A DNA stretch of 14,613 nucleotides from a virus (lineage: Duplodnaviria > Heunggongvirae > Uroviricota > Caudoviricetes): positions 1 through 14,613 of IMG/VR virus record IMGVR_UViG_2778261465_000005; one strand, 5' to 3'. This document shows positions 1 through 14,613 of this stretch, piece after piece (the stretch's first letter is position 1; each line of letters opens with the position of its first letter). The notes below the pieces were generated by a model, which saw nothing but the letters and a program-made list of their open reading frames with translations, was not told the DNA's origin and ran no database searches. The position numbers were made by a program, and so were the translations under genes.

Positions 1-252
1 TTAGTCTGCCAAGTCTTCCTCAGTCGCAACTGGGTAATTCCAAATATCAAAAAAAGCTATAGCCTCCTGCCATTTGCTCCATAAGTTATCAAGTACTTGT
101 GTAGGTTCCGTACTTTTAAAAACAGAATCAGCCGCATCACCGTTATGAACTTCCTCGTACAGTTCCATTATTAGCAGATTAACAAAGTACTGTTTCAACA
201 TTAATGCCTGATTACCTTCTTTCTGCTGGCTATCCTGCTTGATGATCTCCAT
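1..252 (-). CDS. Hypothetical acidic protein (83 aa) within the AT-rich island
   Basis: Complete ORF with stop at 1..3 on the minus strand; AT-rich like the neighbouring island; no family recognised. Confidence 0.35.
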   Translation of the reverse strand: MEIIKQDSQQKEGNQALMLKQYFVNLLIMELYEEVHNGDAADSVFKSTEPTQVLDNLWSKWQEAIAFFDIWNYPVATEEDLAD

Positions 253-1113
253 CGCCCGTACTAGGCACCTGATGATATCCGCTGCATCATTAACGCTCCA
301 TTCAGATCCGCGCTTATCTTTAGCTGATGAATTGGCTCTCTCAGCGCAAGCCTTTAAAGGCTAATAAAGGTAAAGTCTATTTTGTAGCTGTAGCGTTTTT
401 TTAAGTACTTCTTCTTGGCAAATGCCCCCTATGCTGCAACCAATGTGCCAATCGCAGAAATACCTGCCACCATTGCAACTCCAGTCTGAACCGTCAAAGC
501 CCCATATAATCATCACTCCTTATAAAATACTCTGTCAGTAATATCTAATAGGGGATTATGGTAAGCAATAAAATTTATATCCATATCAGTTTATAATCTT
601 TTCGGGCTGCTAACAGTGGATATCCAGTAGCTCTCACTCGCCACAGTGATGAATACCTGAGTATTCACTAACTTCTATCACAGAGGGCAGGGAAAACCAG
701 AAAAATGGCGCCCCAAAACATATATAATTAAAAGAGAAACATTTTCCGTCAAATGACATAGCTTCGACTAAATTCATTCTAAGCATACATAAAAACGAAG
801 CCCTCTTTTTTATGTATGCACTAATTTGAGCTAGAATTAATAAACACATATTGTTAACTGGATGCACTTAAATCTAGGACCAGCAAACAGTATTGATACA
901 ATCTCATTCACATCTACCAATTCACTTATCACAATAAGTTAAGTGAATTAACAACCCATCAAAAATACGCAAAAACATATCATCTTCAATGCATTACATT
1001 AAAAGAACCACTAAACACTTGTTTACTAAATATTTCACAAAGATAATTATAATAAACACCAACACCCCCACCAATAAAATATAAAAAAAAGGGGGGGGGT
1101 ATTGCAACAGAAA

Positions 1114-1899
1114 TTAAACTACCTGTTTCTTTTTATTGTCTGGAGATTTTTCATACTCCACTTTAGGTGCTGAGAAATTTAAATCTAGTGTTTGATTATT
1201 TGTCTTTCTATTTTTAGGTCTATTGACCAACCTCTCATCAATTAATGCAGCAGAAATATAATCATTAAATACTTTTATTTCCTGATAAATCTTATCAGCC
1301 AAAGCATCTATGCTTTTCCACATAGCGCTATTTTTAGAGGATGTATCTTTAAGCTCCCTATTAATTTCCTGATGAAATCCCCGTAACTGATTAATAAACT
1401 CCGATACTTTCCGCTCTAAAGAAGTTCTTGACTCCAAAATATAATCAATGTGCTCTTCCTTTATTTCCAAATCCCTAATTAGCTCTTTGTTTTTTTCTAA
1501 TAGTGCTTCTTCTTTAGCAACAAGTCGTAATATTTTCGTTTCATTAGCTGTCAGTTCAACTAGAGCTCTGTTAATTTCATCACGAATTAATAATTCATTG
1601 CGCTTAGAAGACGATGATTCATGTTGAATAATTTTTTCAATACAGTAATCTTTAGCTTGTTTTATTTCGCAGCATATACCCTTCCATTTATCCCTCTCTA
1701 ATCTAATTTTTCCCTGCAACTCCTTATTATTTTCTCTTTTTGTAATAAAAGATGAAAACCATAAAGAAAAGACGGCAACTGAAGGATACACCCACTGAGC
1801 AATATCGTCAGACGCTTGATAATAGTGCAATATTCTACTGGCACCAAGAGTTAATGCACCTGTCAATATGAATTGAAATGCCCCCATGAAACTTATCAT
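1114..1899 (-). CDS. Predicted membrane protein: two N-terminal hydrophobic helices plus a long charged coiled-coil-like C-terminus (261 aa); candidate effector of an accessory cassette
   Basis: N-terminus FMGAFQFILTGALTLGASRIL and VYPSVAVFSLWFSSFI are hydrophobic helix-like; the rest is rich in E/K/R/L heptad-like sequence. Lies 6 nt downstream of the 168-aa ORF on the same strand. Strongly AT-rich. Confidence 0.6.
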   Translation of the reverse strand: MISFMGAFQFILTGALTLGASRILHYYQASDDIAQWVYPSVAVFSLWFSSFITKRENNKELQGKIRLERDKWKGICCEIKQAKDYCIEKIIQHESSSSKRNELLIRDEINRALVELTANETKILRLVAKEEALLEKNKELIRDLEIKEEHIDYILESRTSLERKVSEFINQLRGFHQEINRELKDTSSKNSAMWKSIDALADKIYQEIKVFNDYISAALIDERLVNRPKNRKTNNQTLDLNFSAPKVEYEKSPDNKKKQVV

Positions 1900-1905
1900 A
1901 ATGAT

Positions 1906-2412
1906 TTAATCCCGCATTAGAAGAAAATCATGTTTAATACCTTTTGCTTTCATATGCTCACTGAAACTTACTGGAGCATTTTCTAAAAATCTCAGATTTG
2001 TATAGATCAATTGGTTTAGTAAGGGAGAGGAAAAATCTACAATTGATGGAAGGTAAAACTCAGTACTCAATGAAATATTGAGTTCATCATCTACACCTTG
2101 ACTCAACGAATGAGATTTTATACCAATGGCGTATTTATTGTGCTCATCAATTAAAGATAATATTTCTTCGTTAGAAAGCTTTTTCTCCAACTGTTCAAAA
2201 ACAAAACTTATGCTTAGTGAAATACAATAAGCATTTGGTCTTTTAAAAAGGCCATATATAATTTTTAAAGGTTCATCATCCTTATCCGATGAGAAATCGA
2301 ATCCACCAAAAGCATGATAATTATCATCATCAACAAGCTTAAACTTTTCTTCTTCAACATTTATTACACCTTCAACATTAGTTAGAAGAGTAAATAAATC
2401 GGAATTTTTCAT
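1906..2412 (-). CDS. Hypothetical soluble protein (168 aa), first gene of the accessory cassette
   Basis: ATG preceded by AAGGAG at about 8 nt spacing on the minus strand; AT-rich; no recognisable motif. Confidence 0.6.
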   Translation of the reverse strand: MKNSDLFTLLTNVEGVINVEEEKFKLVDDDNYHAFGGFDFSSDKDDEPLKIIYGLFKRPNAYCISLSISFVFEQLEKKLSNEEILSLIDEHNKYAIGIKSHSLSQGVDDELNISLSTEFYLPSIVDFSSPLLNQLIYTNLRFLENAPVSFSEHMKAKGIKHDFLLMRD

Positions 2413-2715
2413 TTAGTACTCCTTACAGTATCTACTTTAATATCATTTTACCGTTTAATATTACATCTTGCACTAAAAACAAAGTAGTCTACAGTATGCC
2501 ACCCGCAGCCTCTTTATGATTACTTATTGTCCATATTCCTGAAATTTCCCTTTGGTGCAATTGCATACCATTCCAGCCTCTTCCTCCAGTGCCACCATCC
2601 AGTATGTCACTGCATACCTACCGTTGATTATGCACATCAAGTTCTGTTCACTCTACAGCGCCACTACATTTTTCATAACACTCTTAACAGGCATATCATA
2701 TGTATGAGCAACGTC

Positions 2716-2775
2716 TTAGCAACTGAATGTACTATTTGTCACAATGTAATGAATAATTGCCTCTTTGTCCGTCAT
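2716..2775 (-). pseudogene. ren: ren remnant: only the first ~19 codons of a Ren-like ORF, ending in a premature stop
   Basis: Minus-strand ATG overlaps the P stop (ATGA) and encodes MTDKEAIIHYIVTNSTFSC*, which resembles the lambda Ren N-terminus as I recall it (MTGKEAIIHY...); the sequence then stops and AT-rich foreign DNA follows. Confidence 0.45.
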
Positions 2776-3473
2776 ACACTTGCTCCTTTCAGTCCGAACT
2801 TAGCTTTGATTTCTGCGATCTTCGCAAGAGCCTGTGCACGATTTAGAGGTCTACCGCCCATGACAGGAAGTTGTTTTACTGGTTCAGGTATAGCCTCACC
2901 ACGGTTAATTCGCGCGGTCATACAGGACAGTTCATCGGCAGCCTTGCGCCGTAATTCCGCGTCAGTCAGCATATTGGCCCGCATGTTCTGGTACAGGTTG
3001 GTAACCAGCCAGTAGTGGGCGTTTGACTGCCACGGGTAGGACTCCGCATCCGGGTATAGGCCACGTTTCCGGCAGTATTCGTAAACCATATCAACCAGCT
3101 CACTGGCGTTTGGCAGCCCGGCGGTAACGGATGCTTCTTCCCGGCACCAGGCAACAAACTGCCCGGGTGATGGCAGGAATGGTCGATTCTGCCGACGGGC
3201 TACGCGCATTCCTGCGTTAACCTGTTCCATTGTGGTGATCCCGTTTTCCCGGAAAGCCAGAACCCACTGGCGGCGGATTTCGTTCAGTTCGTTCTGGTCC
3301 CGGTTAGCCAAGCTCGCCGGGAAAGTTGCCAGTAACTGGCTGAACACACCATTGATGATCTGCGCTACCTGTTGTACCTGCGGCTTTTCGTCGTACTGTT
3401 CCGGCATGTTGTTGGCGATCCGACGCATCTGCTCACGGTCAAAGTTAACCATCTGTGCGGCGATGTTTTTCAT
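2772..3473 (-). CDS. P: Replication protein P (DnaB helicase loader), lambda P type
   Basis: 233-aa product (MKNIAAQMVNFDREQMRRIANNMPEQYDEK...AKIAEIKAKFGLKGASV) matches my recollection of lambda P almost residue for residue; start overlaps the O stop. Confidence 0.9.
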   Translation of the reverse strand: MKNIAAQMVNFDREQMRRIANNMPEQYDEKPQVQQVAQIINGVFSQLLATFPASLANRDQNELNEIRRQWVLAFRENGITTMEQVNAGMRVARRQNRPFLPSPGQFVAWCREEASVTAGLPNASELVDMVYEYCRKRGLYPDAESYPWQSNAHYWLVTNLYQNMRANMLTDAELRRKAADELSCMTARINRGEAIPEPVKQLPVMGGRPLNRAQALAKIAEIKAKFGLKGASV

Positions 3474-4489
3474 AGCTCCACCCCGTAAATCCAGTCAGTG
3501 TTCGTCAGGTCGAGTTTTGGTTTGCCGGCTGTCACGCCAGCCTGTTGCTTGTTACGGTTGATTTCGAGCTGGGTCCACTTGTCGCGTAGTTTGGCCGGAC
3601 TCAGCACGTTACCGGACCAGAAGTTGTCCTGGCAGGCCCAGCGGAACAGCACGCACATGTCGCGGTGGTTACGTCCGTCACGTTCACGCATCAGGCGGAT
3701 ATCGTTAGCCCACCCTGCAAAATTCGGTTTTCTGGCTGATGGCGCGATGGTCTTCACCATGTCAAACATCCACTCTGCGGCGGTCAGGTCTTCTGCTGTC
3801 CCCCACTTGCTGCCGCTCTGAATTGCAGCATCCGGTTTCACCACAGGAAGGTCGTTTTCTGGCTGGTCAGAGGATTCGCCAGAATTCTCGGACGAAAAAG
3901 GTTTTATATTGTCTTTTGTTAGTTTGTCTTTTGTGTTTACCTGATTCGGGTAAGCGCCTTTACCTGATTTGGGTAAATTTTTCTTACCTGATTCAGGTAA
4001 ATTTACCTCTTTCAGGTAAACTTTATTTTTCTTTCCTGATTCGGGTAATGTTGACCATTCACTGACCACATTATTGATGCCGATATTCCGCCCGCTCTGA
4101 ATAAAAATCCCACGCTTTACCAGAACACTTTTTGCAGCAGAACACTTGTGCGGCAATATCCCGGTCAATTCGGAAAGTTGCTCGTTGCTCACCCAATCCA
4201 GTTTTTTATTAAAGCCATATGTTTTGCGCATGACAGCCAGGAAGACCAGAAGCTGGTGCTGTGTTAATCCGGCCAGCATTACAGCTTCCAGCAACTCATT
4301 TGCAATGCGCGTATAACCATCATCGAGATCTGCCACGCGCGGCTCCTTTTGTGCCACATCCGGCACTGGAAAATTGAATATCTCAGCAGTGTTTGCCATA
4401 ATTCCTCCCGCAATGAGTGCGTTACGATTTGCACCTGAAAGTCGGTTCTGTTCCCGCAGACCGACTTTCGCCATTTCTGAATCTGTCAT
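3470..4489 (-). CDS. O: Replication initiator O-like protein: divergent N-terminal iteron-binding domain, lambda-like C-terminal domain
   Basis: N-terminal motifs ADLDDGYTRIANELLEA and RKTYGFNK are typical of lambdoid O proteins; the C-terminal ~90 aa (AEWMFDMVKTIAPSARKPNFAGWANDIRLMRERDGRNHRDMCVLFRWACQDNFWSG...) resembles lambda O; ori iterons lie inside the gene. Confidence 0.85.
   Translation of the reverse strand: MTDSEMAKVGLREQNRLSGANRNALIAGGIMANTAEIFNFPVPDVAQKEPRVADLDDGYTRIANELLEAVMLAGLTQHQLLVFLAVMRKTYGFNKKLDWVSNEQLSELTGILPHKCSAAKSVLVKRGIFIQSGRNIGINNVVSEWSTLPESGKKNKVYLKEVNLPESGKKNLPKSGKGAYPNQVNTKDKLTKDNIKPFSSENSGESSDQPENDLPVVKPDAAIQSGSKWGTAEDLTAAEWMFDMVKTIAPSARKPNFAGWANDIRLMRERDGRNHRDMCVLFRWACQDNFWSGNVLSPAKLRDKWTQLEINRNKQQAGVTAGKPKLDLTNTDWIYGVEL
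3937..4047. repeat. Replication origin iterons: five ~17-bp palindromic repeats (TTACCTGAtTCAGGTAA-like) next to an AT-rich tract (3900..3935), inside the O gene
   Basis: Repeats at 3937-3953, 3960-3976, 3984-4000, 4003-4019 and a degenerate copy at 4032-4047, spaced 19-29 bp; this matches the lambda ori architecture (iterons then AT-rich region within O). Confidence 0.7.
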
Positions 4490-5025
4490 ATTGCCCCCAG
4501 CATGGTGGTAACCATCGCCATTAATGGACCAGCCAGATCCGGGTCCACACGAAACATCGACACAATACCTTCACTCATTTCCTTCAGTTTCTGGTGGCGT
4601 GGTGCGTTGAGAATGACCGCCTGCTTTGCCTCACTGAGTTCCTTTTCCATTTCAGCCAACCGGGCCATGAAGCTATCCTGCTCAGCCAGGTGGCTGCGAT
4701 ATTCCAGCGGTAGTACCGCCAGAATTGCCGGGGTCAGTTCATGCACGTTATTTCGGTATTTTTCAGAATCGAATTTGTTATCGAGGAAGCGGAACAGCTT
4801 CTGGCGTGCACGACTGACATCATCAGGGAAATCGATGGTGCCGCCGCCCTGCTCCCGATACTCATTCACAATGAGTGCGGCAACAACATCCTGATTATCT
4901 GCAGCCGACCAGGCGCGAACGGCATCACGGATTTTTTCGTGGCCTGCCGCCTGTTTTGTTTGAGAACGATTTATCAGCGCAGCCGGGGTAATTCCGCTAG
5001 TCTGTTGGTATGTAATTGGTTGCAT
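4486..5025 (-). CDS. YdaT-like protein (occupies the cII position of the rightward early operon)
   Basis: Position between the cro-like gene and O; motifs NEYREQGGG and LTPAILAVLPLEYRSHL resemble Rac prophage YdaT as I remember it; AGGA Shine-Dalgarno; ATGA overlap with the O start. Confidence 0.5.
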   Translation of the reverse strand: MQPITYQQTSGITPAALINRSQTKQAAGHEKIRDAVRAWSAADNQDVVAALIVNEYREQGGGTIDFPDDVSRARQKLFRFLDNKFDSEKYRNNVHELTPAILAVLPLEYRSHLAEQDSFMARLAEMEKELSEAKQAVILNAPRHQKLKEMSEGIVSMFRVDPDLAGPLMAMVTTMLGAI

Positions 5026-5106
5026 AATTAATTCCTTTAGTTTGAATTGACTGTTAATCAGTCTGTTAAGTTGATTGCTTATTGTTAAAGAGCGTGAAAT
5101 GGAAAT

Positions 5107-5337
5107 TTAAGCTGCGTTCTTTTCGGTGTGTGGAAACAACTTCGGAAGGTCCGGGCGAATCTGGTATGCCTTCACAACTCCACCAGTAGCCGTAACAATG
5201 CTGCCGACATGTTCAGGGGATACCTTTGCTTTGTTGTGAAGCCACTTATAGACGGCCTGCTGTGAAACTTCGCAGGCATCGCCCAGTTTCTTTTGTGAAC
5301 CAACGATATTGATCGCTGTTTTGATTGCTGGGTTCAT
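5107..5337 (-). CDS. Cro-like small HTH regulator (YdaS-like family)
   Basis: 76-aa ORF divergent from the repressor, strong GGAGG Shine-Dalgarno; helix-turn-helix-like segment QKKLGDACEVSQQAVYKWL. Confidence 0.6.
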   Translation of the reverse strand: MNPAIKTAINIVGSQKKLGDACEVSQQAVYKWLHNKAKVSPEHVGSIVTATGGVVKAYQIRPDLPKLFPHTEKNAA

Positions 5338-5441
5338 AACAACCTCCGTGGTTAATCTGAATCAAGATTAAAACTATGGTTGTTTTTAGTCAACAACCAT
5401 TTTCGTTTGATGTAATAAAACCCTGGTTGTACATTTGGTCT
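5338..5441. promoter_or_regulatory. OR-like divergent control region between the cro-like and cI-like genes, with a 25-bp palindrome ATGGTTGTT-N7-AACAACCAT (5376..5400)
   Basis: Perfect 9-bp inverted arms seen directly; AACAAC/GGTTGT motifs recur here and downstream of the cassette terminator; no Shine-Dalgarno ahead of the repressor ATG. Confidence 0.5.
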
Positions 5442-6131
5442 ATGAAAACAACACTCTCAGAAAGACTTAAAGAAGCCAGATTAGCGCGAGGCCTTACACA
5501 AAAGGCGCTTGGGGATTTGGTCGGGGTTAGCCAAGCTGCTATTCAGAAAATCGAAACAGGGAAAGCTAACCAAACAACTAAAATCGTGGAGATCGCGAAC
5601 GCTTTGGGTGTGCGCGCAGAATGGTTATCTTCTGGCGTTGGAAATATGTCAGACAGTACAGTGCAACCAATACAATCAACTGTCAGCCATTCCAAATACT
5701 TTAAGATTGACGTTCTTGATATAGAAGTGAGTGCCGGGCCGGGAGTCATCAACCGTGAGTTTGTAGAAGTTCTACGCTCGGTTGAGTACTCGTTTGACGA
5801 TGCTCGTCACATGTTCGATGGTAGGAAGGCAGAAAATATCCGCATCATTAACGTGCGTGGTGACAGCATGTCAGGAACGATCGAACCAGGTGATCTGCTG
5901 TTCGTTGATATCACGGTTAAATCTTTCGACGGTGATGGTATCTATGCGTTTCTGTATGACGACACAGCCCATGTAAAGCGCCTGCAAATGATGAAGGATA
6001 AGCTGCTGGTTATCTCTGATAACAAAAGCTACTCACCGTGGGACCCGATCGAGAAAGATGAGATGAACCGGGTATTTATCTTCGGGAAAGTTATTGGGAG
6101 CATGCCGCAGACGTATAGGAAGCATGGATAG
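5442..6131 (+). CDS. Prophage repressor, cI-like (N-terminal XRE-type HTH plus C-terminal S24 LexA-like autopeptidase); not lambda immunity
   Basis: MKTTLSERLKEARLARGLTQKALGDLVGVSQAAIQKIE is an HTH; the C-terminus has GDSM (catalytic Ser) and a downstream VKRL (Lys) typical of S24 peptidases. The track ORF begins at 5376, but the HTH starts at the ATG at 5442. Confidence 0.85.
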   Translation: MKTTLSERLKEARLARGLTQKALGDLVGVSQAAIQKIETGKANQTTKIVEIANALGVRAEWLSSGVGNMSDSTVQPIQSTVSHSKYFKIDVLDIEVSAGPGVINREFVEVLRSVEYSFDDARHMFDGRKAENIRIINVRGDSMSGTIEPGDLLFVDITVKSFDGDGIYAFLYDDTAHVKRLQMMKDKLLVISDNKSYSPWDPIEKDEMNRVFIFGKVIGSMPQTYRKHG

Positions 6132-6199
6132 TACCAATTAAAAATTATCAACCGGGCATTGTGCTCATTCAGTAAAACAACTTAATTATTCATTTTAGA

Positions 6200-7273
6200 A
6201 TGGAGAACTTAATGGATACTTTAAAATATGAGAAATTCTCTGATTTTGATCACAATGACCCATTTTTTGACTCTTTAAAAAAAGATTATAAAGAGTTTCC
6301 TCTTTGGTTAGAAAAAAAAGCCAGAGAAGGAGAATCAGCTTATGTGCTCTATGATGACAAGCATAAAATCGAAGGTTTTATGTATCTAAAAGAAAATGAT
6401 GATGCAAATGACATTAATCCAGCGCTCCCACCAGGACGTCATCTAAAGATAGGAACATTCAAATTTGAATCTAAAGGCACCCTTCGCGGACAACGATTTC
6501 TAAAAAAAGCGTTTGACCATGCATTTTCATCAAAATCTGATGATATTTATGTTACTGTTTTCGACAAACACGTCCATCTAATAAAACTTTTCCAAACGTA
6601 CGGATTTTACATTCATGGTGAAAAAGAAACACATAACGGGAAAGAGTTTGTATATGCGAGGTCTTTGCATGAGCCTTATGGTGATATTTTATTAGATTAC
6701 CCTCGAATAATGACATCAAGGGCCAACAAATATTTACTGGCGATTTATCCCGAATATCACACTAGACTATTCCCTGATTCAAAACTTGTAAATGAATCAC
6801 CAGATATTGTCAAAGATATATCCCATGCTAACAGCATTCATAAAATTTACATATGTGGAATGCGTTCTGTGATGGGAATGAAAAGAGGAGATATCATTGT
6901 CATCTATAGAACCGGAGACAAAAAAGGGCCAGCTCGCTATCGTTCTGTAGCCAGTACATTATGTGTAGTTGAGAGCGTAAAAAATATTTCTGAATTTTTA
7001 AGCGAAGATAGTTTTGTAGACTATTGTATTCGTTTTAGCGTATTTTCTGAAGATGAACTCAGAAAAATCTATAAAGAACGTCGATACCCTTTCATTATAA
7101 GATTCACATACAATCTGTCTTTGCCAAAGAGACCCAATCGTGCTATTTTAATAGATCATGTGGGGCTAAATGGTTCGCGTGCATTCCGATGGAGTCACTT
7201 TAAACTCACAAATGAGCAGTTCTTAAAGATCATCGAGTTAGGCAAGATAAATGAAAGTTTTATTATCCATTAA
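6200..7273 (+). CDS. Hypothetical 357-aa protein, AT-rich cargo gene; tentatively an N-terminal GNAT-like fold with an unassigned C-terminal domain (possibly PUA-like)
   Basis: Directly downstream of the repressor on the same strand with no terminator between; markedly lower GC than its flanks. An alternative start at 6212 has a better Shine-Dalgarno (GGAGA). Domain guesses are from motif impression only. Confidence 0.6.
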   Translation: MENLMDTLKYEKFSDFDHNDPFFDSLKKDYKEFPLWLEKKAREGESAYVLYDDKHKIEGFMYLKENDDANDINPALPPGRHLKIGTFKFESKGTLRGQRFLKKAFDHAFSSKSDDIYVTVFDKHVHLIKLFQTYGFYIHGEKETHNGKEFVYARSLHEPYGDILLDYPRIMTSRANKYLLAIYPEYHTRLFPDSKLVNESPDIVKDISHANSIHKIYICGMRSVMGMKRGDIIVIYRTGDKKGPARYRSVASTLCVVESVKNISEFLSEDSFVDYCIRFSVFSEDELRKIYKERRYPFIIRFTYNLSLPKRPNRAILIDHVGLNGSRAFRWSHFKLTNEQFLKIIELGKINESFIIH

Positions 7274-7628
7274 GCCTGAGTTTGCAGAAAAAATATTGAA
7301 CGGAACAAAGCGGTTCGAGTTTCGTAAAGGTATATTCAAAAATCCGCAAATTAGCACCGTTGTTATTTATGCCACGATGCCATTAGGTAAAGTTGTTGGT
7401 CAATTCCGTATTGAATCAATACTAAGTGACGAACCGGAATCTCTTTGGAAAAAGACGGAAAAACACGCAGGTATTTCTAAGCAATTTTATGACTCATATT
7501 ATTCAGGTAGAGAAAAGGCCTACGCAATAAAAATTGGTGAAGTGGAAAGATATAAAGAACCAATTCCTATCTCTGCTCTAGGGAGTAATATTAAGCCACC
7601 ACAATCATATCTTTACCTACCTGCGTAA
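7251..7628 (+). CDS. ASCH-like (PUA-superfamily) small protein, 125 aa; second gene of the cargo cassette
   Basis: N-terminus MKVLLSIKPEFAEKILNGTKRFEFRK resembles the ASCH-domain signature; start overlaps the upstream gene by 23 nt; AT-rich. Confidence 0.55.
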   Translation: MKVLLSIKPEFAEKILNGTKRFEFRKGIFKNPQISTVVIYATMPLGKVVGQFRIESILSDEPESLWKKTEKHAGISKQFYDSYYSGREKAYAIKIGEVERYKEPIPISALGSNIKPPQSYLYLPA

Positions 7629-7632
7629 GAAT

Positions 7633-7660
7633 CCCGGCCACCGTGCCGGGTTTTCTTTTG
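7633..7660 (+). terminator. Intrinsic terminator closing the cI + cargo operon
   Basis: GC stem CCCGGC-(caccgt)-GCCGGG followed by TTTTCTTTT, starting 5 nt after the stop at 7626-7628. Confidence 0.65.
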
Positions 7661-7771
7661 TCCCCTCATCACACAAACCGTTCAAATAACCACCACGACA
7701 TCCCTTCAGTTATCGCTATGCGATGCAAGTCACAAAATAAATCCATCCTAAATACAACCAGTTATATCTAA

Positions 7772-7850
7772 AACAACCAGTAAAACAACTTTTGTTGTTG
7801 ACGATAAAACAACTATAGTTTTAAATAAATTCATCGCAACAACACAACGA
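7772..7850. promoter_or_regulatory. OL/pL-like candidate: repeated AACAAC/GTTGTT operator-like motifs including the palindrome AACAAC-tttt-GTTGTT (7784..7799) and a sigma70-like promoter (TTGACG 7798-7803, 18-nt spacer, TAAATA 7822-7827)
   Basis: Motifs read directly from the sequence; position upstream of the leftward early operon and sharing the repeat motif with OR supports an operator role. Confidence 0.35.
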
Positions 7851-8103
7851 TACGGCAACCACCTGATTCACCGTTGCGATGACCGCTTAGATCCGCAGCT
7901 TGAATTTCAGCAGGCTCCGGGGAGTGCGAGGGGTGAAGCGGACGCGTGAACGTCGGTGTGACCAGCTGAAATCAACTCAACACTTCATACCTCAGTCGCT
8001 TCAACGAGGCGGCTTAGTTATGACAACCGGCGGCCATCCACCGCCTGAATACGCGCAGAAGTCTATATATGTTCAGCAGCCCAGCTTACGGGCAGGAGTT
8101 TTT

Positions 8104-8310
8104 ATGGTTCATCAACATTACGGAACGCAGACCGTTAATCGCGGTGCGGTCATGCCAGGAATGCTGGTCAAACACAAAGATGGTACCTGGACTGCATCAG
8201 CTAATTTACGCGGACGGCTATATCTGCATCGCGGCATCGAGCGCACTTATACCCGTGATTTGCTCGTGGAAGTTTTTCTCGACGGACGCGGCAACGGCCT
8301 GAATCACTAA
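8104..8310 (+). CDS. Small protein (68 aa) at the kil position upstream of gam; possibly a Kil-type host division inhibitor
   Basis: ATG at 8104 with AGGAG about 7 nt upstream; the track ORF from 7900 uses a TTG start and is probably over-extended. Functional call is positional only. Confidence 0.4.
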
Positions 8311-8385
8311 TCCCCTTTCCTGTTTTCCTAATCAGCCTGGCATTTCGCGGGCGATATTTTCACAGCCATTTTCAGGAGGTCAGCC

Positions 8386-8682
8386 ATGAACGCTTATTAC
8401 ATTCAGGATCGTCTTGAGGCTCAGAGCTGGGCGCGTCACTACCAGCAGATCGCCCGTGAAGAGAAAGAGGCAGAACTGGCAGACGACATGGAAAAAGGCC
8501 TGCCCCAGCACCTGTTTGAATCGCTATGCATCGATCATTTGCAACGCCACGGGGCCAGCAAAAAAGCCATTACCCGTGCGTTTGATGACGATGTTGAGTT
8601 TCAGGAGCGCATGGCAGAACACATCCGGTACATGGTTGAAACCATTGCTCACCATCAGGTTGATATTGATTCAGAGGTATAA
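8386..8682 (+). CDS. gam: Gam (RecBCD inhibitor), short GamS form only (98 aa)
   Basis: [21 protein letters not shown]...[10 protein letters not shown] matches my recollection of lambda Gam from its internal Met; AGGAGG Shine-Dalgarno; in-frame stop at 8329 prevents a longer GamL form. Confidence 0.9.
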
Positions 8683-8687
8683 AACGG

Positions 8688-9473
8688 ATGAGTACAGCAC
8701 TCGCAACGCTGGCTGGGAAGCTGGCTGAACGTGTCGGCATGGATTCTGTCGACCCACAGGAACTGATCACCACTCTTCGCCAGACGGCATTTAAAGGTGA
8801 TGCCAGCGATGCGCAGTTCATCGCATTACTGATCGTTGCCAACCAGTACGGCCTTAATCCATGGACGAAAGAAATTTACGCCTTTCCTGATAAGCAGAAT
8901 GGCATCGTTCCGGTGGTGGGCGTTGATGGCTGGTCCCGCATCATCAATGAAAACCAGCAGTTTGATGGCATGGACTTTGAGCAGGACAATGAATCCTGTA
9001 CATGCCGGATTTACCGCAAGGACCGCAATCATCCGATCTGCGTTACCGAGTGGATGGATGAATGCCGCCGCGAACCATTCAAAACCCGCGAAGGCAGAGA
9101 AATTACGGGGCCGTGGCAGTCGCATCCCAAACGGATGTTACGGCATAAAGCCATGATTCAGTGTGCCCGTCTGGCCTTCGGATTTGCGGGTATCTATGAC
9201 AAGGATGAAGCCGAGCGCATTGTCGAAAATACCGCATACACTGCAGAACGTCAGCCGGAACGCGACATCACTCCGGTTAACGATGAAACCATGCAGGAGA
9301 TTAACACTCTGCTGATTGCCCTGGACAAAACATGGGATGACGACTTATTGCCGCTCTGTTCCCAGATATTTCGCCGCGACATTCGCGCATCGTCAGAACT
9401 GACACAGGCCGAAGCAGTGAAAGCTCTTGGATTCCTGAAACAGAAAGCCTCTGAACAGAAGGTGGCTGCATGA
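8688..9473 (+). CDS. bet: Bet (Red-beta single-strand annealing recombinase)
   Basis: 261-aa product [38 protein letters not shown]... matches my recollection of lambda Bet. Confidence 0.92.
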
Positions 9474-10150
9474 CACCGGACATTATCCTGCAGCGTACCG
9501 GGATCGACGTGAGAGCTGTCGAACAGGGGGATGATGCGTGGCACAAATTACGGCTCGGCGTCATCACCGCTTCAGAAGTTCACAACGTGATAGCAAAGCC
9601 CCGCTCAGGAAAGAAGTGGTCTGACATGAAAATGTCCTACTTCCACACCCTGCTGGCTGAGGTTTGCACCGGTGTGGCTCCGGAAGTTAATGCTAAAGCG
9701 CTGGCCTGGGGAAAACAGTACGAGAACGACGCCAGAACCCTGTTTGAGTTCACTTCCGGCGTAAATGTTATTGAATCCCCGATCATCTATCGCGACGAAA
9801 GTATGCGCACCGCCTGCTCTCCCGATGGTTTATGCAGTGACGGCAATGGCCTTGAGCTGAAATGCCCGTTTACCTCCCGGGATTTCATGAAGTTCCGGCT
9901 CGGTGGTTTCGAGGCCATAAAGTCGGCTTACATGGCCCAGGTGCAGTACAGCATGTGGGTGACGCGAAAAGATGCCTGGTACTTTGCCAACTATGACCCG
10001 CGTATGAAGCGTGAAGGCCTGCATTATGTCGTGGTTGAGCGGGATGAAAAGTACATGGCGAGTTTTGACGAGATGGTGCCGGAGTTCATCGAAAAAATGG
10101 ACGAGGCACTGGCTGAAATTGGTTTTGCATTTGGGGAGCAATGGCGATGA
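9470..10150 (+). CDS. exo: Exo (Red-alpha 5'-3' exonuclease)
   Basis: 226-aa product [40 protein letters not shown]... matches my recollection of lambda Exo; overlaps the bet stop. Confidence 0.92.
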
Positions 10151-10308
10151 AGCATCCTCACGATAATATCCGGGTAGGCACGATCACTTTCGTCTACTCC
10201 GTTACAAAGCGAGGCTGGGTATTTCCCGGCCTTTCTGTTATCCGAAATCCCCTGAAAGCACAGCGGCTGGCTGAGGAGATAAATAATAAACGGGGGCTGT
10301 ATGACTGA
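10147..10308 (+). CDS. Small hypothetical protein (53 aa), translationally coupled between exo and the methyltransferase
   Basis: ATG overlaps the exo stop (ATGA) and its TGA falls just inside the methyltransferase start; [53 protein letters not shown]. Below the ORF-track length cutoff. Confidence 0.4.
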
Positions 10309-10858
10309 TTTCACCGGAAGCAATACTCCTGCCGAACATCGCGACAGCTGGCGCACACCACCAGAGATTTTTGCTGCGCTTAATGCAGAGTTCGTTTTTC
10401 AACTTGATGCTGCCGCCAGCGAAAAAAACCGACTATGTCGGCTTTTTATCTCACAGGAGCAGAACACATTAACCACTTCATGGCCTGAAGCAATGGGATA
10501 TGCCTCTGGTTATGTCTGGTTGAATCCACCATACAGCAATATTTCCCCTTTTGTGAAAAAGGCAGCCACTGAAAACAAATTCAGTAGTGTGGGATGTGTA
10601 ATGTTATTGCCTGCTGACACATCTGTCGGATGGTTTCATGAAGCGATACAAACCGCCAGTGAGGTCAGATTCATCACGGCAGGACGACTGGCATTTATTA
10701 ACCCACTCACTGAGAAACCCGTCAGTGGAAATAATAAAGGCTCGATGCTCATTATCTGGCACCCATACCCCCGTACACACTGCCACTTTACGACCGTTGA
10801 TCGTGGAGAGTTGATGGCGTTCGGCTCAAGGATTCTTGCCCGTCGGGAGGCTGCATGA
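10301..10858 (+). CDS. Phage DNA N6-adenine methyltransferase (Dam-like orphan MTase)
   Basis: 185-aa product with the NPPY catalytic motif (VWLNPPYSNI), typical of amino-methyltransferases; size fits the phage N6-adenine MTase family. Confidence 0.75.
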   Translation: MTDFTGSNTPAEHRDSWRTPPEIFAALNAEFVFQLDAAASEKNRLCRLFISQEQNTLTTSWPEAMGYASGYVWLNPPYSNISPFVKKAATENKFSSVGCVMLLPADTSVGWFHEAIQTASEVRFITAGRLAFINPLTEKPVSGNNKGSMLIIWHPYPRTHCHFTTVDRGELMAFGSRILARREAA

Positions 10859-10938
10859 CAACCACGGAATGCATTTTTCTGGCAGCGGGCTTCATATTCT
10901 GTGTGCTTATGCTTGCCGACATGGGACTTGTTCAATGA
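10855..10938 (+). CDS. Possible 27-aa hydrophobic micro-protein (MTTTECIFLAAGFIFCVLMLADMGLVQ)
   Basis: ATGA overlaps at both ends (with the MTase stop and with the next ORF's ATG at 10935); a single hydrophobic helix. Could be a chance ORF. Confidence 0.25.
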   Translation: MTTTECIFLAAGFIFCVLMLADMGLVQ

Positions 10939-11150
10939 CACCTCAGCAGGAAAACGCCCTTCGCAGCATTGCCCGTCAGGCTAATTCTGAAATCAAAAAA
11001 GCCAGACAGCAGTTTCCGGATAAAAACGTCGATGACATTTGCCGTAGCGTACTAAAGAAGCACCGCGAAACGGTAACGCTGATGGGATTCACACCGACTC
11101 ATTTAAGCCTGGCGATCGGCATGTTAAACGGCGTCTTTAAGGAACGGTGA
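10935..11150 (+). CDS. Hypothetical protein (71 aa from the ATG at 10935; the track ORF from 10836 uses a TTG start)
   Basis: ORF in the leftward early operon; no family recognised. Confidence 0.45.
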   Translation: MTPQQENALRSIARQANSEIKKARQQFPDKNVDDICRSVLKKHRETVTLMGFTPTHLSLAIGMLNGVFKER

Positions 11151-11173
11151 ACATGAAAAGCAAAATCATCAGG

Positions 11174-11198
11174 GAGCTACAGGCTCCTTTTTTATTGT
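11174..11198 (+). terminator. Weak intrinsic-terminator-like hairpin (GGAGC-tacag-GCTCC followed by TTTTTT)
   Basis: Seen directly; short stem, so possibly an attenuator rather than a full stop; it sits inside a possible 29-aa ORF (11153..11242). Confidence 0.3.
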
Positions 11199-11248
11199 TC
11201 GCATTCATCCTCAAGCGTATTAACCAACAATTCAGGGATTAATGGAAG

Positions 11249-11467
11249 ATGGCAGACATCATTGATTCAGCATCAGAAATCGAAGAATTACAGCGCAATA
11301 CAGCAATAAAAATGCGTCGTCTGAACTACCAGACTGTATCCGCAACTCATTGTTGTGAGTGTGGCGATCCGATAGATGAGCGAAGACGCCTGGCTGTTCA
11401 GGGTTGTCGGACTTGTGCAAGTTGCCAGGAGGAGATCGAACTTAAGAACAAACAATGGGGACTGTGA
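11249..11467 (+). CDS. TraR/DksA-family C4 zinc-finger protein (72 aa)
   Basis: CxxC...CxxC pattern (CCECGDPIDERRRLAVQGCRTCASC) and size typical of phage TraR-like proteins. Confidence 0.65.
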   Translation: MADIIDSASEIEELQRNTAIKMRRLNYQTVSATHCCECGDPIDERRRLAVQGCRTCASCQEEIELKNKQWGL

Positions 11468-11514
11468 TGGCCTCAAAGCAGCAAATTTCAACATCGTCCA
11501 ACTGAGGTGTAAAA

Positions 11515-11793
11515 ATGTTCAGAATCATTTTTCCTAACACCTGGTACGTCGACCACCACGGCACTCCCTGCAAAATCCTGCGTTCTACCCACAACAAAGT
11601 TCACTACATCCGAAAAGGCAGAACATGTATCGCCAGCATGTTCCGCTTTAATCATGACTTTGAACCTGTGAATAAAGCTGATGCAGATCGGATAGCAGAA
11701 GAGATCGAAACGGCAGAACACATTAAGAAGTTACGTGACATGCGTTCAAAAAGCAGAGGTAACCATGGAATCATACAGCCTCACACTCGATGA
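11515..11793 (+). CDS. Hypothetical protein (92 aa) upstream of xis
   Basis: GAGGTG Shine-Dalgarno; 3' end overlaps the xis start; no family recognised. Confidence 0.4.
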   Translation: MFRIIFPNTWYVDHHGTPCKILRSTHNKVHYIRKGRTCIASMFRFNHDFEPVNKADADRIAEEIETAEHIKKLRDMRSKSRGNHGIIQPHTR

Positions 11794-12115
11794 GGCCTGT
11801 CAGTTTCTTAAGATATCCAGACCAACCGCCACCAACTGGATACGAACAGGCCGCCTACAGGCAACACGCAAAGACCCCACTAAACCAAAATCTCCTTACC
11901 TCACAACGCGACAAGCCTGCATTGCGGCGCTTCAGTCTCCGCTGCATACTATCAAGGTGAGCGCGGGTGATGGCATAACAGAGGAAAGAAAATGTCACTC
12001 TTCCGCAGAAGTGAAATATGGTACGCCAGTTTCACATTGCCGAACGGTAAAAGATTTAAACAGTCTCTTGGAACAAAGGACAAAAGGCAGGCGACAGAGC
12101 TCCATGACAAGCTAA
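11765..12115 (+). CDS. xis: Excisionase (P22-type Xis, 116 aa)
   Basis: [38 protein letters not shown]... has an HTH and matches my recollection of P22 Xis; directly upstream of and overlapping int. Confidence 0.75.
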
Positions 12116-13155
12116 AGGCTGAAGCATGGCGGGTCAGCAAACTTGGTGAAATACCTGATATGACGTTTGAGGAAGCGTGTGTCAGGTGGCTCGAAGAGAA
12201 AGCACATAAGAAATCACTGGACGATGACAAAAGCCGGATCGGATTCTGGCTTCAACATTTCGCAGGAATGCAACTAAGAGACATTACTGAATCAAAAATT
12301 TATTCAGCAATGCAGAAAATGACGAACCGGCGTCATGAGGAAAACTGGAAACTCAGGGCAGAAGCATGCAGAAAAAAAGGGAAACCTGTTCCAGAATACA
12401 CGCCAAAACCAGCGTCCGTTGCAACGAAGGCTACGCATCTTTCATTTATAAAGGCCCTGCTAAGAGCCGCAGAGCGTGAATGGAAAATGCTCGATAAGGC
12501 ACCAATTATTAAAGTGCCTCAACCAAAGAATAAACGGATCCGCTGGCTGGAGCCCCATGAAGCACAAAGGCTGATTGATGAATGTCCGGAGCCATTAAAG
12601 TCTGTTGTTGAATTTGCACTGGCAACAGGCTTAAGACGCTCGAACATCATCAACCTTGAATGGCAACAAATAGATATGCAGCGCCGGGTGGCATGGATAA
12701 ACCCGGAAGAGAGTAAATCAAACCGCGCAATTGGCGTTGCGCTGAATGATACTGCATGTCGCGTATTGAAAAAACAAATCGGTAATCATCACTGTTGGGT
12801 ATTTGTGTACAAGGAAAGCTGTACCAAACCAGACGGAACGAAAGCGCCAACAGTAAGGAAGATGCGGTATGACGCAAACACAGCCTGGAAAGCGGCTCTG
12901 AGACGGGCTGGTATTGATGATTTCAGATTTCACGACTTGAGACACACCTGGGCAAGTTGGCTGGTTCAAGCCGGAGTCCCGTTGTCAGTGTTACAGGAAA
13001 TGGGAGGCTGGGAGTCTATCGAAATGGTTCGTCGATATGCTCACCTTGCACCTAATCACCTTACCGAACACGCACGGCAAATAGACTCGATCCTGAACCC
13101 ATCGGTCCCAAATTTGTCCCAGTCAAAAAATAAGGAAGGTACTAATGATGTGTAA
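11992..13155 (+). CDS. int: Tyrosine integrase (P22-type Int, thrW-specific)
   Basis: 387 aa; catalytic motifs [11 protein letters not shown] and [15 protein letters not shown]; the N-terminus [40 protein letters not shown] resembles P22 Int as I recall it; sits next to thrW, the known P22 attachment site. Confidence 0.9.
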
Positions 13156-13169
13156 CTTATTGATTTAAA

Positions 13170-13215
13170 TGGTGCCGATAATAGGAGTCGAACCTACGAC
13201 CTTCGCATTACGAAT
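13170..13215. other. Inferred attR (prophage-host junction) overlapping the 3' part of thrW
   Basis: Integrase is adjacent to the tRNA 3' end; phages integrating in tRNA genes regenerate the 3' end from attP. Exact core limits cannot be set without the attL copy. Confidence 0.4.
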
Positions 13216-13245
13216 GCGCTGCTCTACCAACTGAGCTATATCGGC
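13170..13245 (-). tRNA. thrW: tRNA-Thr (anticodon CGU)
   Basis: Reverse complement reads GCCGATATAGCTCAGTTGGTAGAGCAGCGCATTCGTAATGCGAAGGTCGTAGGTTCGACTCCTATTATCGGCACCA: cloverleaf with anticodon CGT and encoded CCA. Confidence 0.9.
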
Positions 13246-13359
13246 CCTGAAAGGACATGTTCACGAACGTGAATCACGGTGGACAAGGTTAAAACTAACC
13301 GGGCGATGCGTCAATGGCCTTGTGAATCAAATGGCTACTTTTGCATCACCCGGTTTTAT

Positions 13360-14613
13360 TTACGCACGAATGGTGTAATCACCAATGCCGATCCACTTGT
13401 AAGTGGTCAGTGCTTCCAGCCCCATTGGGCCACGCGCGTGGAGTTTTTGTGTGCTTACCGCCACTTCCGCACCCAGTCCAAACTGGCCGCCGTCGGTAAA
13501 ACGCGTAGAGGCGTTAACATAAACAGCGGACGAATCCACTTCGTTAACAAAACGCTGGGCGTTGCGCATATCGCGGGTCAGGATCGCATCGGAGTGTTGT
13601 GTGCCGTGTTCACGAATATGGGCGATGGCATCGTCAAGATCGCTGACGATTTTGACGTTCAAATCTAATGACAGAAACTCATCGTCATACTCTTCGGCTT
13701 TAACAGCAACCACCTTCGCAGGGCCTGCCTGCAACTGCGCCAGTGCAGCTGCATCAGCGTGTAACGTCACGCCACTTTCCGCCATTTGTTTGCTTAATGC
13801 GGGCAGGAAGCTATCGGCGATATTTTTATTCACCAGCAACGTTTCTACCGTATTACACGTGCTCGGACGCTGAGTTTTCGCGTTGACGATTACTTTCAGG
13901 GCTTCAGCGATCTCTGCACTTTCATCAACATAAATATGGCATACGCCTATACCACCAGTGATCACCGGGATTGTCGACTGCTCGCGGCACAGTTTATGCA
14001 AACCAGCTCCACCACGCGGGATCAGCATGTCGATGTATTTATCCATACGCAGCATTTCACTGACCAGCGCACGGTCAGGATTATCAATCGCCTGCACGGC
14101 ACCCGCCGGTAAGCCACAGGATTTCAGGGCGTCCTGAATCACCGCCACCGTTGCCGCGTTAGTGCGACAGGTTTCTTTGCCACCACGCAGGATCACCGCA
14201 TTACCGGTTTTCAGGCACAGCGAAGCGACATCAACCGTCACGTTCGGGCGCGCTTCATAAATCACGCCAATAACCCCCAGCGGTACGCGACGACGCTCAA
14301 GACGCAGGCCGCTGTCCAGTACGCCGCCATCGATTACCTGCCCCACCGGATCGGCGAGGTTGCACACCTGACGTACATCGTCGGCAATGCCTTTCAGCCG
14401 TGCGGGCGTCAGTGCCAGACGGTCAAGCATCGCTTCGCTAAGGCCATTGGCTCGCGCGTCAGCAACATCCTGGGCGTTAGCGTTGAGGATGATTTCGCTT
14501 TGTGCTTCCAGTTCATCGGCGATTTTTTCCAGCACGCGATTTTTTTCGCGGCTGGAGAGTTGCGCTAATTTATACGAGGCTTGCTTCGCGGCAATGCCCA
14601 TTTGTTCCAGCAT
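13360..14613 (-). CDS. proA: Gamma-glutamyl phosphate reductase (host gene, complete, 417 aa)
   Basis: Product [50 protein letters not shown]... matches E. coli ProA as I recall it; the start codon is the last three bases of the window. Confidence 0.95.

Follow-up and report, generated by a model that had tools for sequence, protein, structure and literature searches.

In phage lambda, the region from the replication genes to the nin genes contains tR2 and further downstream terminators, which the nin5 deletion removes. Morons, which were first described in HK97 and HK022, are autonomous insertions of promoter, gene and terminator, and they are defined by a deviant guanine-plus-cytosine (GC) content together with a promoter and a terminator of their own (PMC3594210). 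Mosaic junctions have been attributed to recombination between diverged phage sequences (PMC2327257, PMC3945230). In this study we have analyzed positions 253-1113 of a 14,613-nucleotide stretch of viral DNA (positions 1 to 14,613 of IMG/VR record IMGVR_UViG_2778261465_000005; the whole stretch is hereafter called the window). This interval lies in the minus-strand early-right operon of a lambdoid Escherichia coli prophage, with an imported AT-rich two-gene cassette on one side and the nin genes on the other. The interval is not one element and consists of three parts, the front of a dead gene of the phrog_1779 family, the former leader of that gene and a piece of orphan DNA. We consider it quite probable that the whole is a modular-recombination scar in the replication-to-nin accessory region, made up of a pseudogene front, a former leader and an orphan tail, and that it represents mosaic debris rather than an RNA gene.

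A preliminary description of this DNA, made from its letters alone, had presented the interval as an AT-rich non-coding stretch. The second half of that statement holds for the present state of the DNA, since the listing of open reading frames (ORFs) contains no intact ORF longer than 77 amino acids (aa) within 253-1113, and the Prokaryotic Genome Annotation Pipeline (PGAP) placed no annotation there in two complete genomes, PSS-16 and H9Ecoli. Low GC content, however, is confined to 517-1113 (27-34%), whereas 253-516 is former coding sequence at 45.5%, compared with 36.7% for the interval and 45.3% for the window as a whole. PSS-16 and H9Ecoli are the only ones among 5426 complete E. coli genomes to carry the interval at full length, with 99.8% and 98.5% identity, respectively. 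Read along the minus strand of the window, the PGAP order in PSS-16 is cro-like, YdaT/cII-like, O, P, two hypothetical genes, an unannotated gap and an 83-aa ORF, followed on the same strand by ylcH-like, ybcN, ninE, ybcO, rusA, ylcG and Q. The prophage is inserted at the thrW tRNA-Thr gene; the end of the tyrosine integrase ORF adjoins this tRNA gene, and proA follows at the right end of the window. The coordinates of all features are collected in Table 1.

The phrog_1779 pseudogene and its former leader

Sequences that match window 253-587 at 82-83% identity occur in 179 further E. coli genomes and in the phages PhiR26_1 and PhiR5_1, and the matching records annotate an intact 169-aa hypothetical protein over the homologue of window 253-510, for example WP_000990010.1 (E. 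coli 118UI) and XSB42084.1 (phage PhiR26_1). The intact relative covers positions 1-169 of the 169 in the phrog_1779 profile (E=1.7e-102), and tblastn places 169/169 codons colinearly on window 510-4 in a single frame, with 79% identity, E=6e-98 and one in-frame stop, a full-length colinear homology that makes the window copy a member of this family. Its location is also that of the intact relatives, just upstream of ylcH/ybcN/ninE. What the window copy does not have is an uninterrupted frame with a usable start, and we class it as a pseudogene because it carries a TAG nonsense codon, a +1/-1 indel pair and a change of the ancestral ATG ATG to ATT ATA. By these alignments 253-516 is the front half of a decayed phrog_1779 gene, a family without an assigned function, and the 83-aa ORF that PGAP lists as hypothetical protein WP_001391403.1 is the other end of the same dead gene.

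The preliminary description had also pointed out a GC-richer patch at about 400-500, and its composition is as described (47.5% against 36.7% GC for the interval) because this patch carries the GCN and GGN codons of an Ala/Gly-rich helix. The further suggestion that it might encode a structured RNA or a micro-ORF did not survive, as its fold z-scores of about -1.9 to +0.8 reveal no excess RNA structure and the patch is the frameshifted remnant of the phrog_1779 helix. The indels at about 478 (+1) and about 409 (-1) bracket residues 12-35, where the main frame reads CNGGRYFCDWHIGCSIGG, and the homologous residues VAMVAGISAIGTLVAA are readable only in another frame (ORF 429-497). The conserved hydrophobic Ala/Gly-rich N-terminal helix, AAGISAxGTxAAA, is present in 11/11 intact family clusters and is not found in frame in the window copy. 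The scrambled segment is the most conserved N-terminal feature of the family.

Two other motifs that had attracted attention are consequences of the decay. The perfect palindrome AGCCTTTAAAGGCT, which had been placed at about 346-359, is present but lies at 349-362, and its 7-bp arms are at the chance level (mean best 7.07 bp in shuffled sequence). It straddles the nonsense codon, the intact allele has only an imperfect form of it (AGCCTTTAAAGACT), and the comparison indicates that it is a by-product of two substitutions at a recombination edge. Similarly, the consensus TATAAT at 505-510 is present but is one of four on the plus strand of the interval, in DNA whose promoter-like sites are at chance level. 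It overlaps the degenerate starts, intact relatives read CACATC at this position, and the plus-strand TATAAT is a by-product of the start-codon changes.

Could the gene still be alive? A living gene would have to yield two functional polypeptides (51 aa and 83 aa) or a full-length protein by read-through of the TAG, and the 51-codon and 83-codon ORFs are both open, with a Shine-Dalgarno sequence, AAGGAG (521-516), ahead of the former. We regard this as extremely improbable, however, because the conserved helix is out of frame, the Shine-Dalgarno sequence overlaps one substitute start, GTG (516-514), and is only 2 nt from the other, ATG (513-511), the sister copies have one more stop and two more frameshifts, and the window encodes no suppressor tRNA, only the host tRNA-Thr. 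The lesions themselves are stable among copies. The TAG is invariant across the 10 copies that span the site in the copy alignment and was confirmed by direct reading in L022, L009 and L012, and the +1/-1 indel pair shows no variation among the aligned copies.

The comparison of haplotypes, whose copies differ by at most about 1.5%, documents a stepwise decay. The sister copies L009 and L012 are more decayed than the window copy: besides the shared lesions they show an insertion of 2 bp, another stop (W144*) and a third frameshift, and their homology runs through three frames. The oldest copies have two stops and a further frameshift pair beyond the shared +1/-1 pair, and in the oldest haplotype state the gene is already thoroughly dead. 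Later copies have had their 3' end partly overwritten from intact alleles: the last 252 bp in H9, L020 and L021, and the last 359 bp in the window and PSS-16. Window 1-359 differs by 1 base from the 3' two-thirds of the intact 118UI gene, and beyond 359 the sequence is that of a diverged allele. The overwriting would have occurred by recombination with an intact allele from other prophages, which would explain why the 83-aa ORF looks so clean. The same kind of recombination patch accounts for a cluster of haplotype differences, as five of the 11 substitution sites in 253-1113 fall in 253-360, the other six being at 465, 558, 692, 750, 757 and 912. These six show that the interval is at least as free to change as its surroundings. 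The 1.6-kb cassette with its upstream region has 0-2 substitutions, and the comparison gives no sign of constraint on the interval.

Upstream of the dead gene, homology to the relatives continues through its former leader and stops at about 587. By eye, the alignment contains a promoter-like pair of hexamers, and the counterpart in the 118UI allele, TTGATT-17-GATATT, keeps the hexamers and the spacing despite about 25% divergence. The window pair, TTGCTT-17-GATATT, is not among the eight sites reported by the promoter scan. The conservation suggests that the phrog_1779 gene once had its own promoter, which is a prediction from sequence.

Two observations adjoin the pseudogene. A 170-aa database protein, P0008, the only one of this allele that looks intact, was rejected as such, as its DNA has TAG at both positions shown as Gln. 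The gene is L022 (an ENA contig) 225-737, and the reading of TAG as Gln at two positions is a gene-calling artefact, which calls for caution with recoded gene calls in metagenome protein sets. In addition, the motif (T)CACAGATGCA...CACCTGCG recurs between nin-region modules of different lambdoid phages, with sites in L005 at about 5880-5920 and 6400-6427 (flanking a 68-aa ORF) and in L022 at about 840-870 (after the phrog_1779 pseudogene), and it may be a linker where modules are exchanged.

The orphan tail and its hairpins

Beyond the former leader lies DNA of a different kind. The tail, 590-1113, was found only in its own prophage lineage, that is, in the two complete E. coli genomes named above and in near-identical assemblies and metagenome contigs. 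A blastn search set for distant matches found no match in 50,697 phage records or 72,556 plasmids, and exact-pattern scans with both of its hairpins (A and B, Table 1) found none in IMG/VR. Hairpin pattern scans returned only two contigs from metagenomes, both of the same prophage at 98.6-99.3% identity, and from the GTDB genomes one chance Treponema hairpin with a different loop. Neither does the tail appear to hold the remains of a gene, as six-frame translations of 517-1116 had no match in Pfam or PHROGs at E<=1. The 77-aa ORF at 634-867 was rejected as a gene: it has no family match, it is uncalled in eight related loci, and its haplotype substitutions fall at codon positions 3, 1, 2 and 2, with no third-position bias. 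No tRNA or tmRNA was found in 253-1113, and no tandem repeats of the type III antitoxin-like or CRISPR-like kind. In window 1-2600 the scan reported 8 promoter-like sites where 10.8 are expected by chance, and one of them, TTGACG-17-AATTAT, points toward the pseudogene and the nin genes.

The comparison that bears most directly on the tail is with other occurrences of the neighboring cassette, a tight pair of genes for proteins of 168 aa and 261 aa. This pair occurs in six other contexts: a lambdoid phage (L005), where a 70% identical cassette occupies the same slot directly after P; the Serratia marcescens chromosome, beside cysE (L006); Pectobacterium actinidiae (L007); a short metagenome contig (L016); and two contigs where it stands next to a plasmid-type replicase (L017 and L018). 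In 6/6 of these there is no similarity to 590-1113 or to either hairpin arm, and blastn, tblastx and searches with the arm motifs revealed no similarity of the tail to any other cassette or phrog_1779 context. The flanks of the cassette in L006 and L007 are unrelated, and in L005 a canonical terminator, AAGCCCTTTTA...TAAAAGGGCTTTT, directly follows the 261-aa gene. Upstream of the 168-aa gene, about 100 bp are conserved between the window and L005, including a promoter-like TGCAAG-N16-TAAAAT. Because the tail is absent elsewhere and this upstream segment is shared with L005, the conserved unit consists of the promoter-like region and the two genes, and the tail is context-specific. On the evidence of these searches, 590-1113 is orphan non-coding DNA that is not part of the conserved cassette.

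The tail nevertheless contains two hairpins that are real. The 13-bp-stem inverted repeat with its 11-nt spacer is exactly where the preliminary description had put it, and if one mismatch is allowed the stem lengthens to 16 bp around a loop of 5 nt. In 500 dinucleotide shuffles of the interval the longest perfect repeat was 11 bp (mean best 7.07 bp), and 13 bp was never reached. As RNA this hairpin A folds with a free energy of -15.4 to -15.7 kcal/mol and a z-score of -4.0 to -5.4. The nested palindrome that had been reported at about 920-946 is real as well, with an inner 6-bp alternative pairing, ACTTAT/ATAAGT, although its true extent is larger (hairpin B, Table 1). Perfect repeats of at least 10 bp, the length of hairpin B, occur in 2.8% of shuffles, and its fold has a free energy of -8.9 to -10.9 kcal/mol and a z-score of -2.9 to -5.3. 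Neither hairpin looks like an intrinsic terminator with a G+C-rich stem, a short loop and an immediate 3' U-tract, as their stems are A/U-rich, no U-tract follows either of them and a terminator scan called nothing in 253-1113.

It has been suggested that the region holds regulatory elements or a non-coding RNA of the adjacent cassette, and the tail might indeed encode a small RNA or a cis-regulatory RNA with hairpins A and B as its structural core or terminator. The two hairpins are significantly more stable than shuffled sequence, and the tail lies directly 3' of the cassette and shares its low GC content. The suggestion is sound to the extent that the interval adjoins a foreign cassette and includes a candidate terminator hairpin at 1060-1104. 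We consider an RNA unlikely, however. Rfam 15 at the gathering score over the whole window has nothing in 253-1113, and at E<=5 over 200-1200 it has nothing relevant, only three chance-level matches far below the gathering score. Beyond hairpins A and B, the sole 100-nt fold window in the interval with z < -2 is a marginal one (576-675, minus strand, -2.13), the hairpins are without a U-tract, and the promoter-like sites are at chance level. The tail is also missing from 6/6 other cassette contexts, among them the L005 cassette, 70% identical and located in the same slot, and the repeats were found in 0/6. All copies of the region are so alike (at least 98.5% identical, with no substitutions in the hairpins) that compensatory changes would hardly show, and the diverged homologues of the cassette are without it. 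By the yardstick of the preliminary description itself, conservation of the repeats in homologous islands, the idea of a cassette-owned RNA or regulatory element fails.

Hairpins A (13-N11-13) and B (10-N11-10) might instead act as DNA, either as operators of a dimeric protein or as recombination or junction sites left from the arrival of the cassette. Both are perfect dyads above chance level with the same 11-bp spacer, and both lie in the mosaic junction zone. This possibility is about as doubtful as that of an RNA. The half-sites do not recur in the window outside the dyads, the only other matches being scattered through coding DNA and showing 2 mismatches; the dyads are unlike the operator-like dyad of the immunity region (ATGGTTGT-N9-ACAACCAT) and absent at the other cassette insertions; and the cassette proteins have no recognizable DNA-binding domain. 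For lack of other copies in the window, the arms were rejected as repeated operators or cI operators. An integron attC-like site at about 851-954 was also rejected by inspection, its core motifs being in the wrong orientation and not matching the consensus, and the flanking TTGTTAA...TTAACAA motif does not fit the integron attC core.

Several points weigh against the view that the interval is a recombination scar. Hairpins A and B are longer than chance and share an 11-nt spacer, and a model of the tail as junk leaves both facts unexplained. Their combined 68 bp contain no substitution where by our estimate about 1 would be expected, in copies that are within about 1.5% of each other. The canonical intrinsic-terminator pattern is seen in none of the hairpins of the tail (A, B and 1060-1104). 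Finally, the source of the 520-bp tail was not found in searches of E. coli genomes, phages, plasmids, IMG/VR, GTDB and metagenomes. Hairpins A and B could pause or stabilize RNA, or be DNA sites. We still prefer the scar as the explanation of the interval, in which the most plausible function of the tail, judged by its sequence, would be the formation of transcript 3' ends, with a putative terminator or insulator role.

The imported block and its 3' end

The tail arrived, in our interpretation, as part of a larger block. Compared with 118UI, the boundaries lie at about 590 and about 2715, and because homology to relatives breaks off near 587 at the tail end and within ren near 2715 at the far end, we take 590-2715 as the imported block. 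This 2.1-kb AT-rich block would have replaced everything from about codon 20 of ren to the leader of the phrog_1779 gene, bringing in a promoter-like upstream region, the 168-aa gene, the gene for a 261-aa membrane coiled-coil protein and the 520-bp tail. Downstream of it the phrog_1779 gene is dead, with its nonsense codon, a compensating frameshift pair that destroys the N-terminal helix and lost starts. During lytic growth the tail would be transcribed passively in the minus-strand early-right operon, the direction and extent of transcription being inferred, whereas in the lysogen it would at most be the 3' untranslated or termination zone of the cassette. There the hairpin at 1060-1104 with its U-rich tail, perhaps together with hairpins B and A, may limit read-through from the cassette promoter into nin and Q.

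The hairpin at 1060-1104 has a G/C-rich stem and a loop of about 20 nt, and it is followed by the U-rich run UGUUUAUUAU. The fold of 1035-1120 on the minus strand has a free energy of -19.8 kcal/mol and a z-score of -2.77, with 2/200 shuffles equally stable. Owing to the 20-nt loop, it was not among the calls of the consensus terminator scan. It may be the terminator of the cassette, which is a prediction. Its 5' arm and loop are formed by a homopolymer tract, the most variable site of the locus, which lies 14 nt past the stop of the 261-aa gene and also between weak -35-like and -10-like hexamers. Among 12 near-identical copies the tract ranges over C6-9/T6-8, with totals of 13, 14, 15 and 17 nt. 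The variation is probably real slippage rather than sequencing error because tract length differs consistently between sample groups, although some of the records may be long-read assemblies and error or selection may also play a part.

Such variability raises the question of whether the tract separates the hexamers of a phase-variable minus-strand promoter, TTGCAA (1107-1102) and TATATT (1083-1078), that drives either the small hydrophobic peptide of ORF 994-1107 or read-through into nin and Q. The promoter-like hexamers do flank the tract, the spacers vary from 14 to 18 nt among the copies, and the downstream ORF is strongly hydrophobic. This is very improbable, in our view, as the hexamers match at only 9/12 positions, a level that is reached by chance in AT-rich DNA, and no credible gene lies downstream. 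The tract totals break the frame of ORF 994-1107 from its TTG start, this ORF has no Shine-Dalgarno sequence and was not called by gene callers in eight related loci, and T-rich strands yield hydrophobic pseudo-peptides by composition. Nor does ORF 994-1107 resemble a type I toxin-antitoxin peptide, as the tract lengths differ by non-multiples of 3. A broader variant, in which the tail is a functional insulator or switch whose C(6-9)T(6-8) tract tunes the terminator hairpin or the promoter spacer and, with the N11 dyads, makes read-through from the lysogen cassette into nin/Q heritably variable, has only a slim chance of being correct, if a slightly better one than the phase-variable promoter.

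The cassette itself is very rare. Among 5.8 billion proteins searched by word index, the 261-aa protein has 6 clusters and the 168-aa protein 3, and among 1.84 billion representatives searched exhaustively the latter has 5. Neither protein has a match at or above any curated cut-off in PADLOC, Pfam or NCBIfam, where there are weak sub-threshold matches only; the 168-aa protein has no sequence match in the PDB, and the structure model of the 261-aa protein is poor (predicted template modelling score, pTM, 0.24). The corresponding slot of related phages is filled by ren, PD-lambda-1 (DUF4041) and a Rha-like gene, and because PD-lambda-1 occupies it there, the cassette is a candidate for a novel defence or exclusion moron. 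A replication-to-nin accessory slot that carries such a rare two-gene cassette is a more interesting object than the interval and a better target for follow-up.

Some observations concern other parts of the window. Between the ren stub and the promoter-like region of the cassette, a terminator-like site at 2489-2508 (minus strand), CTGCGGGTGGCATACTGTAG plus ACTACTTTGT, can be aligned in part with L005 and may shield the cassette from early-right transcription. The immunity-region dyad mentioned above lies in intergenic DNA at 5338-5441, between a cro-like gene and an S24 repressor gene, and is unrelated to hairpins A and B. Downstream of the repressor gene, 6200-7628 (plus strand) holds a gene for a 357-aa hypothetical protein and an ASCH-domain gene, at the position where H9Ecoli has a HipA-family kinase and a DUF3037 gene instead, and this looks like a second variable accessory slot of the prophage type.

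Table 1. Features of the locus in window coordinates, with the basis of each call where the analysis gives one
Feature	Position	Strand	Remarks
C-terminal remnant ORF	1-252	minus	83 aa, internal Met start; outside 253-1113, same dead gene
Pseudogene 5' part	253-516	minus	Untranslated middle 253-360 and 51-codon N-terminal ORF 361-516
Nonsense codon	361-363	minus	TAG for GAG (Glu50); nucleotide alignment to intact relatives and tblastn
Frameshifted segment (GC-richer patch)	409-497	minus	Between +1 indel (~478) and -1 indel (~409)
Degenerate start region	505-516	minus	Ancestral ATGs now ATT (510-508) and ATA (507-505)
Former leader/putative promoter region of phrog_1779 gene	517-589	minus	Homology to 179 E. 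coli genomes and 2 phages
Promoter-like pair in leader	568-563, 545-540	minus	TTGCTT, 17-nt spacer, GATATT; alignment read by eye
Orphan AT-rich spacer (tail)	590-1113		33.6% GC; 3' side of imported cassette
Promoter-like site in tail	724-752	minus	TTGACG-17-AATTAT; consensus scan only
Hairpin A	783-819		13-bp perfect inverted repeat GCATACATAAAAA-N11-TTTTTATGTATGC
Hairpin B	919-949		10-bp perfect arms AATTCACTTA-N11-TAAGTGAATT
Hairpin, candidate non-canonical cassette terminator	1060-1104	minus	Starts 10 nt past stop of 261-aa gene
Homopolymer tract	1083-1099		A8G9 (C9T8 on minus strand); length-variable, 12 near-identical copies compared
261-aa gene	1114-1899	minus	Cassette; two N-terminal transmembrane helices and long coiled coil
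168-aa gene	1906-2412	minus	Cassette
Cassette promoter-like region	~2440-2470	minus	Motif-level prediction
ren stub	2715-2775	minus	First ~20 codons of lambda-type ren (MTDKEAIIHY...), then stop, homology lost
tRNA-Thr(CGT)	13170-13245	minus	Host tRNA; only tRNA and only Rfam match at the gathering score in window

Comparison with described systems

The nearest relative of the front of the interval is the phrog_1779 gene of lambdoid phages, with which it shares all 169 codons colinearly over window 4-510 and, in the 3' 359 bp, every base but one. The practical consequence is one of annotation. WP_001391403.1 and the adjoining gap should be treated as one phrog_1779 pseudogene plus a mosaic junction, and the interval itself as pseudogene and intergenic junction.

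The lambda terminator zone resembles the interval in its place, as both are segments of the early-right operon that follow P/ren and precede the nin genes and Q. There is also a likeness of logic, in that transcription must not reach Q without antitermination. The two differ in that there is no sequence similarity between them and no canonical intrinsic terminator was called here. The accessory or defence slot of 118UI and PhiR26_1, with PD-lambda-1/DUF4041 and a Rha-like gene, is likewise located between P/ren and the phrog_1779 gene; in contrast to it, the cargo here is the pair of genes for 168-aa and 261-aa proteins, which has no curated defence match.

The architecture of the block, with its deviant GC content, promoter-like region and terminator-like end, is that of a moron. 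Relative to related phages, the block 590-2715 is an insertion that interrupts the conserved P-ren...nin order, and its GC content deviates clearly (31.6% in the cassette genes and 33.6% in the tail, compared with 51.4% in the replication genes, or about 32% against 51%). It has a promoter-like motif that is conserved in L005 and a hairpin after its last gene. Unlike in the described morons, promoter and terminator are here only predicted, the hairpin is non-canonical with its 20-nt loop, and the 520-bp tail, which greatly exceeds the length required of a terminator, does not belong to the conserved cassette. The closest known things to the interval are thus a phrog_1779 gene, here a pseudogene, the flank of a moron and a lambdoid mosaic junction, and the interval offers no new mechanism and requires no new kind of element.

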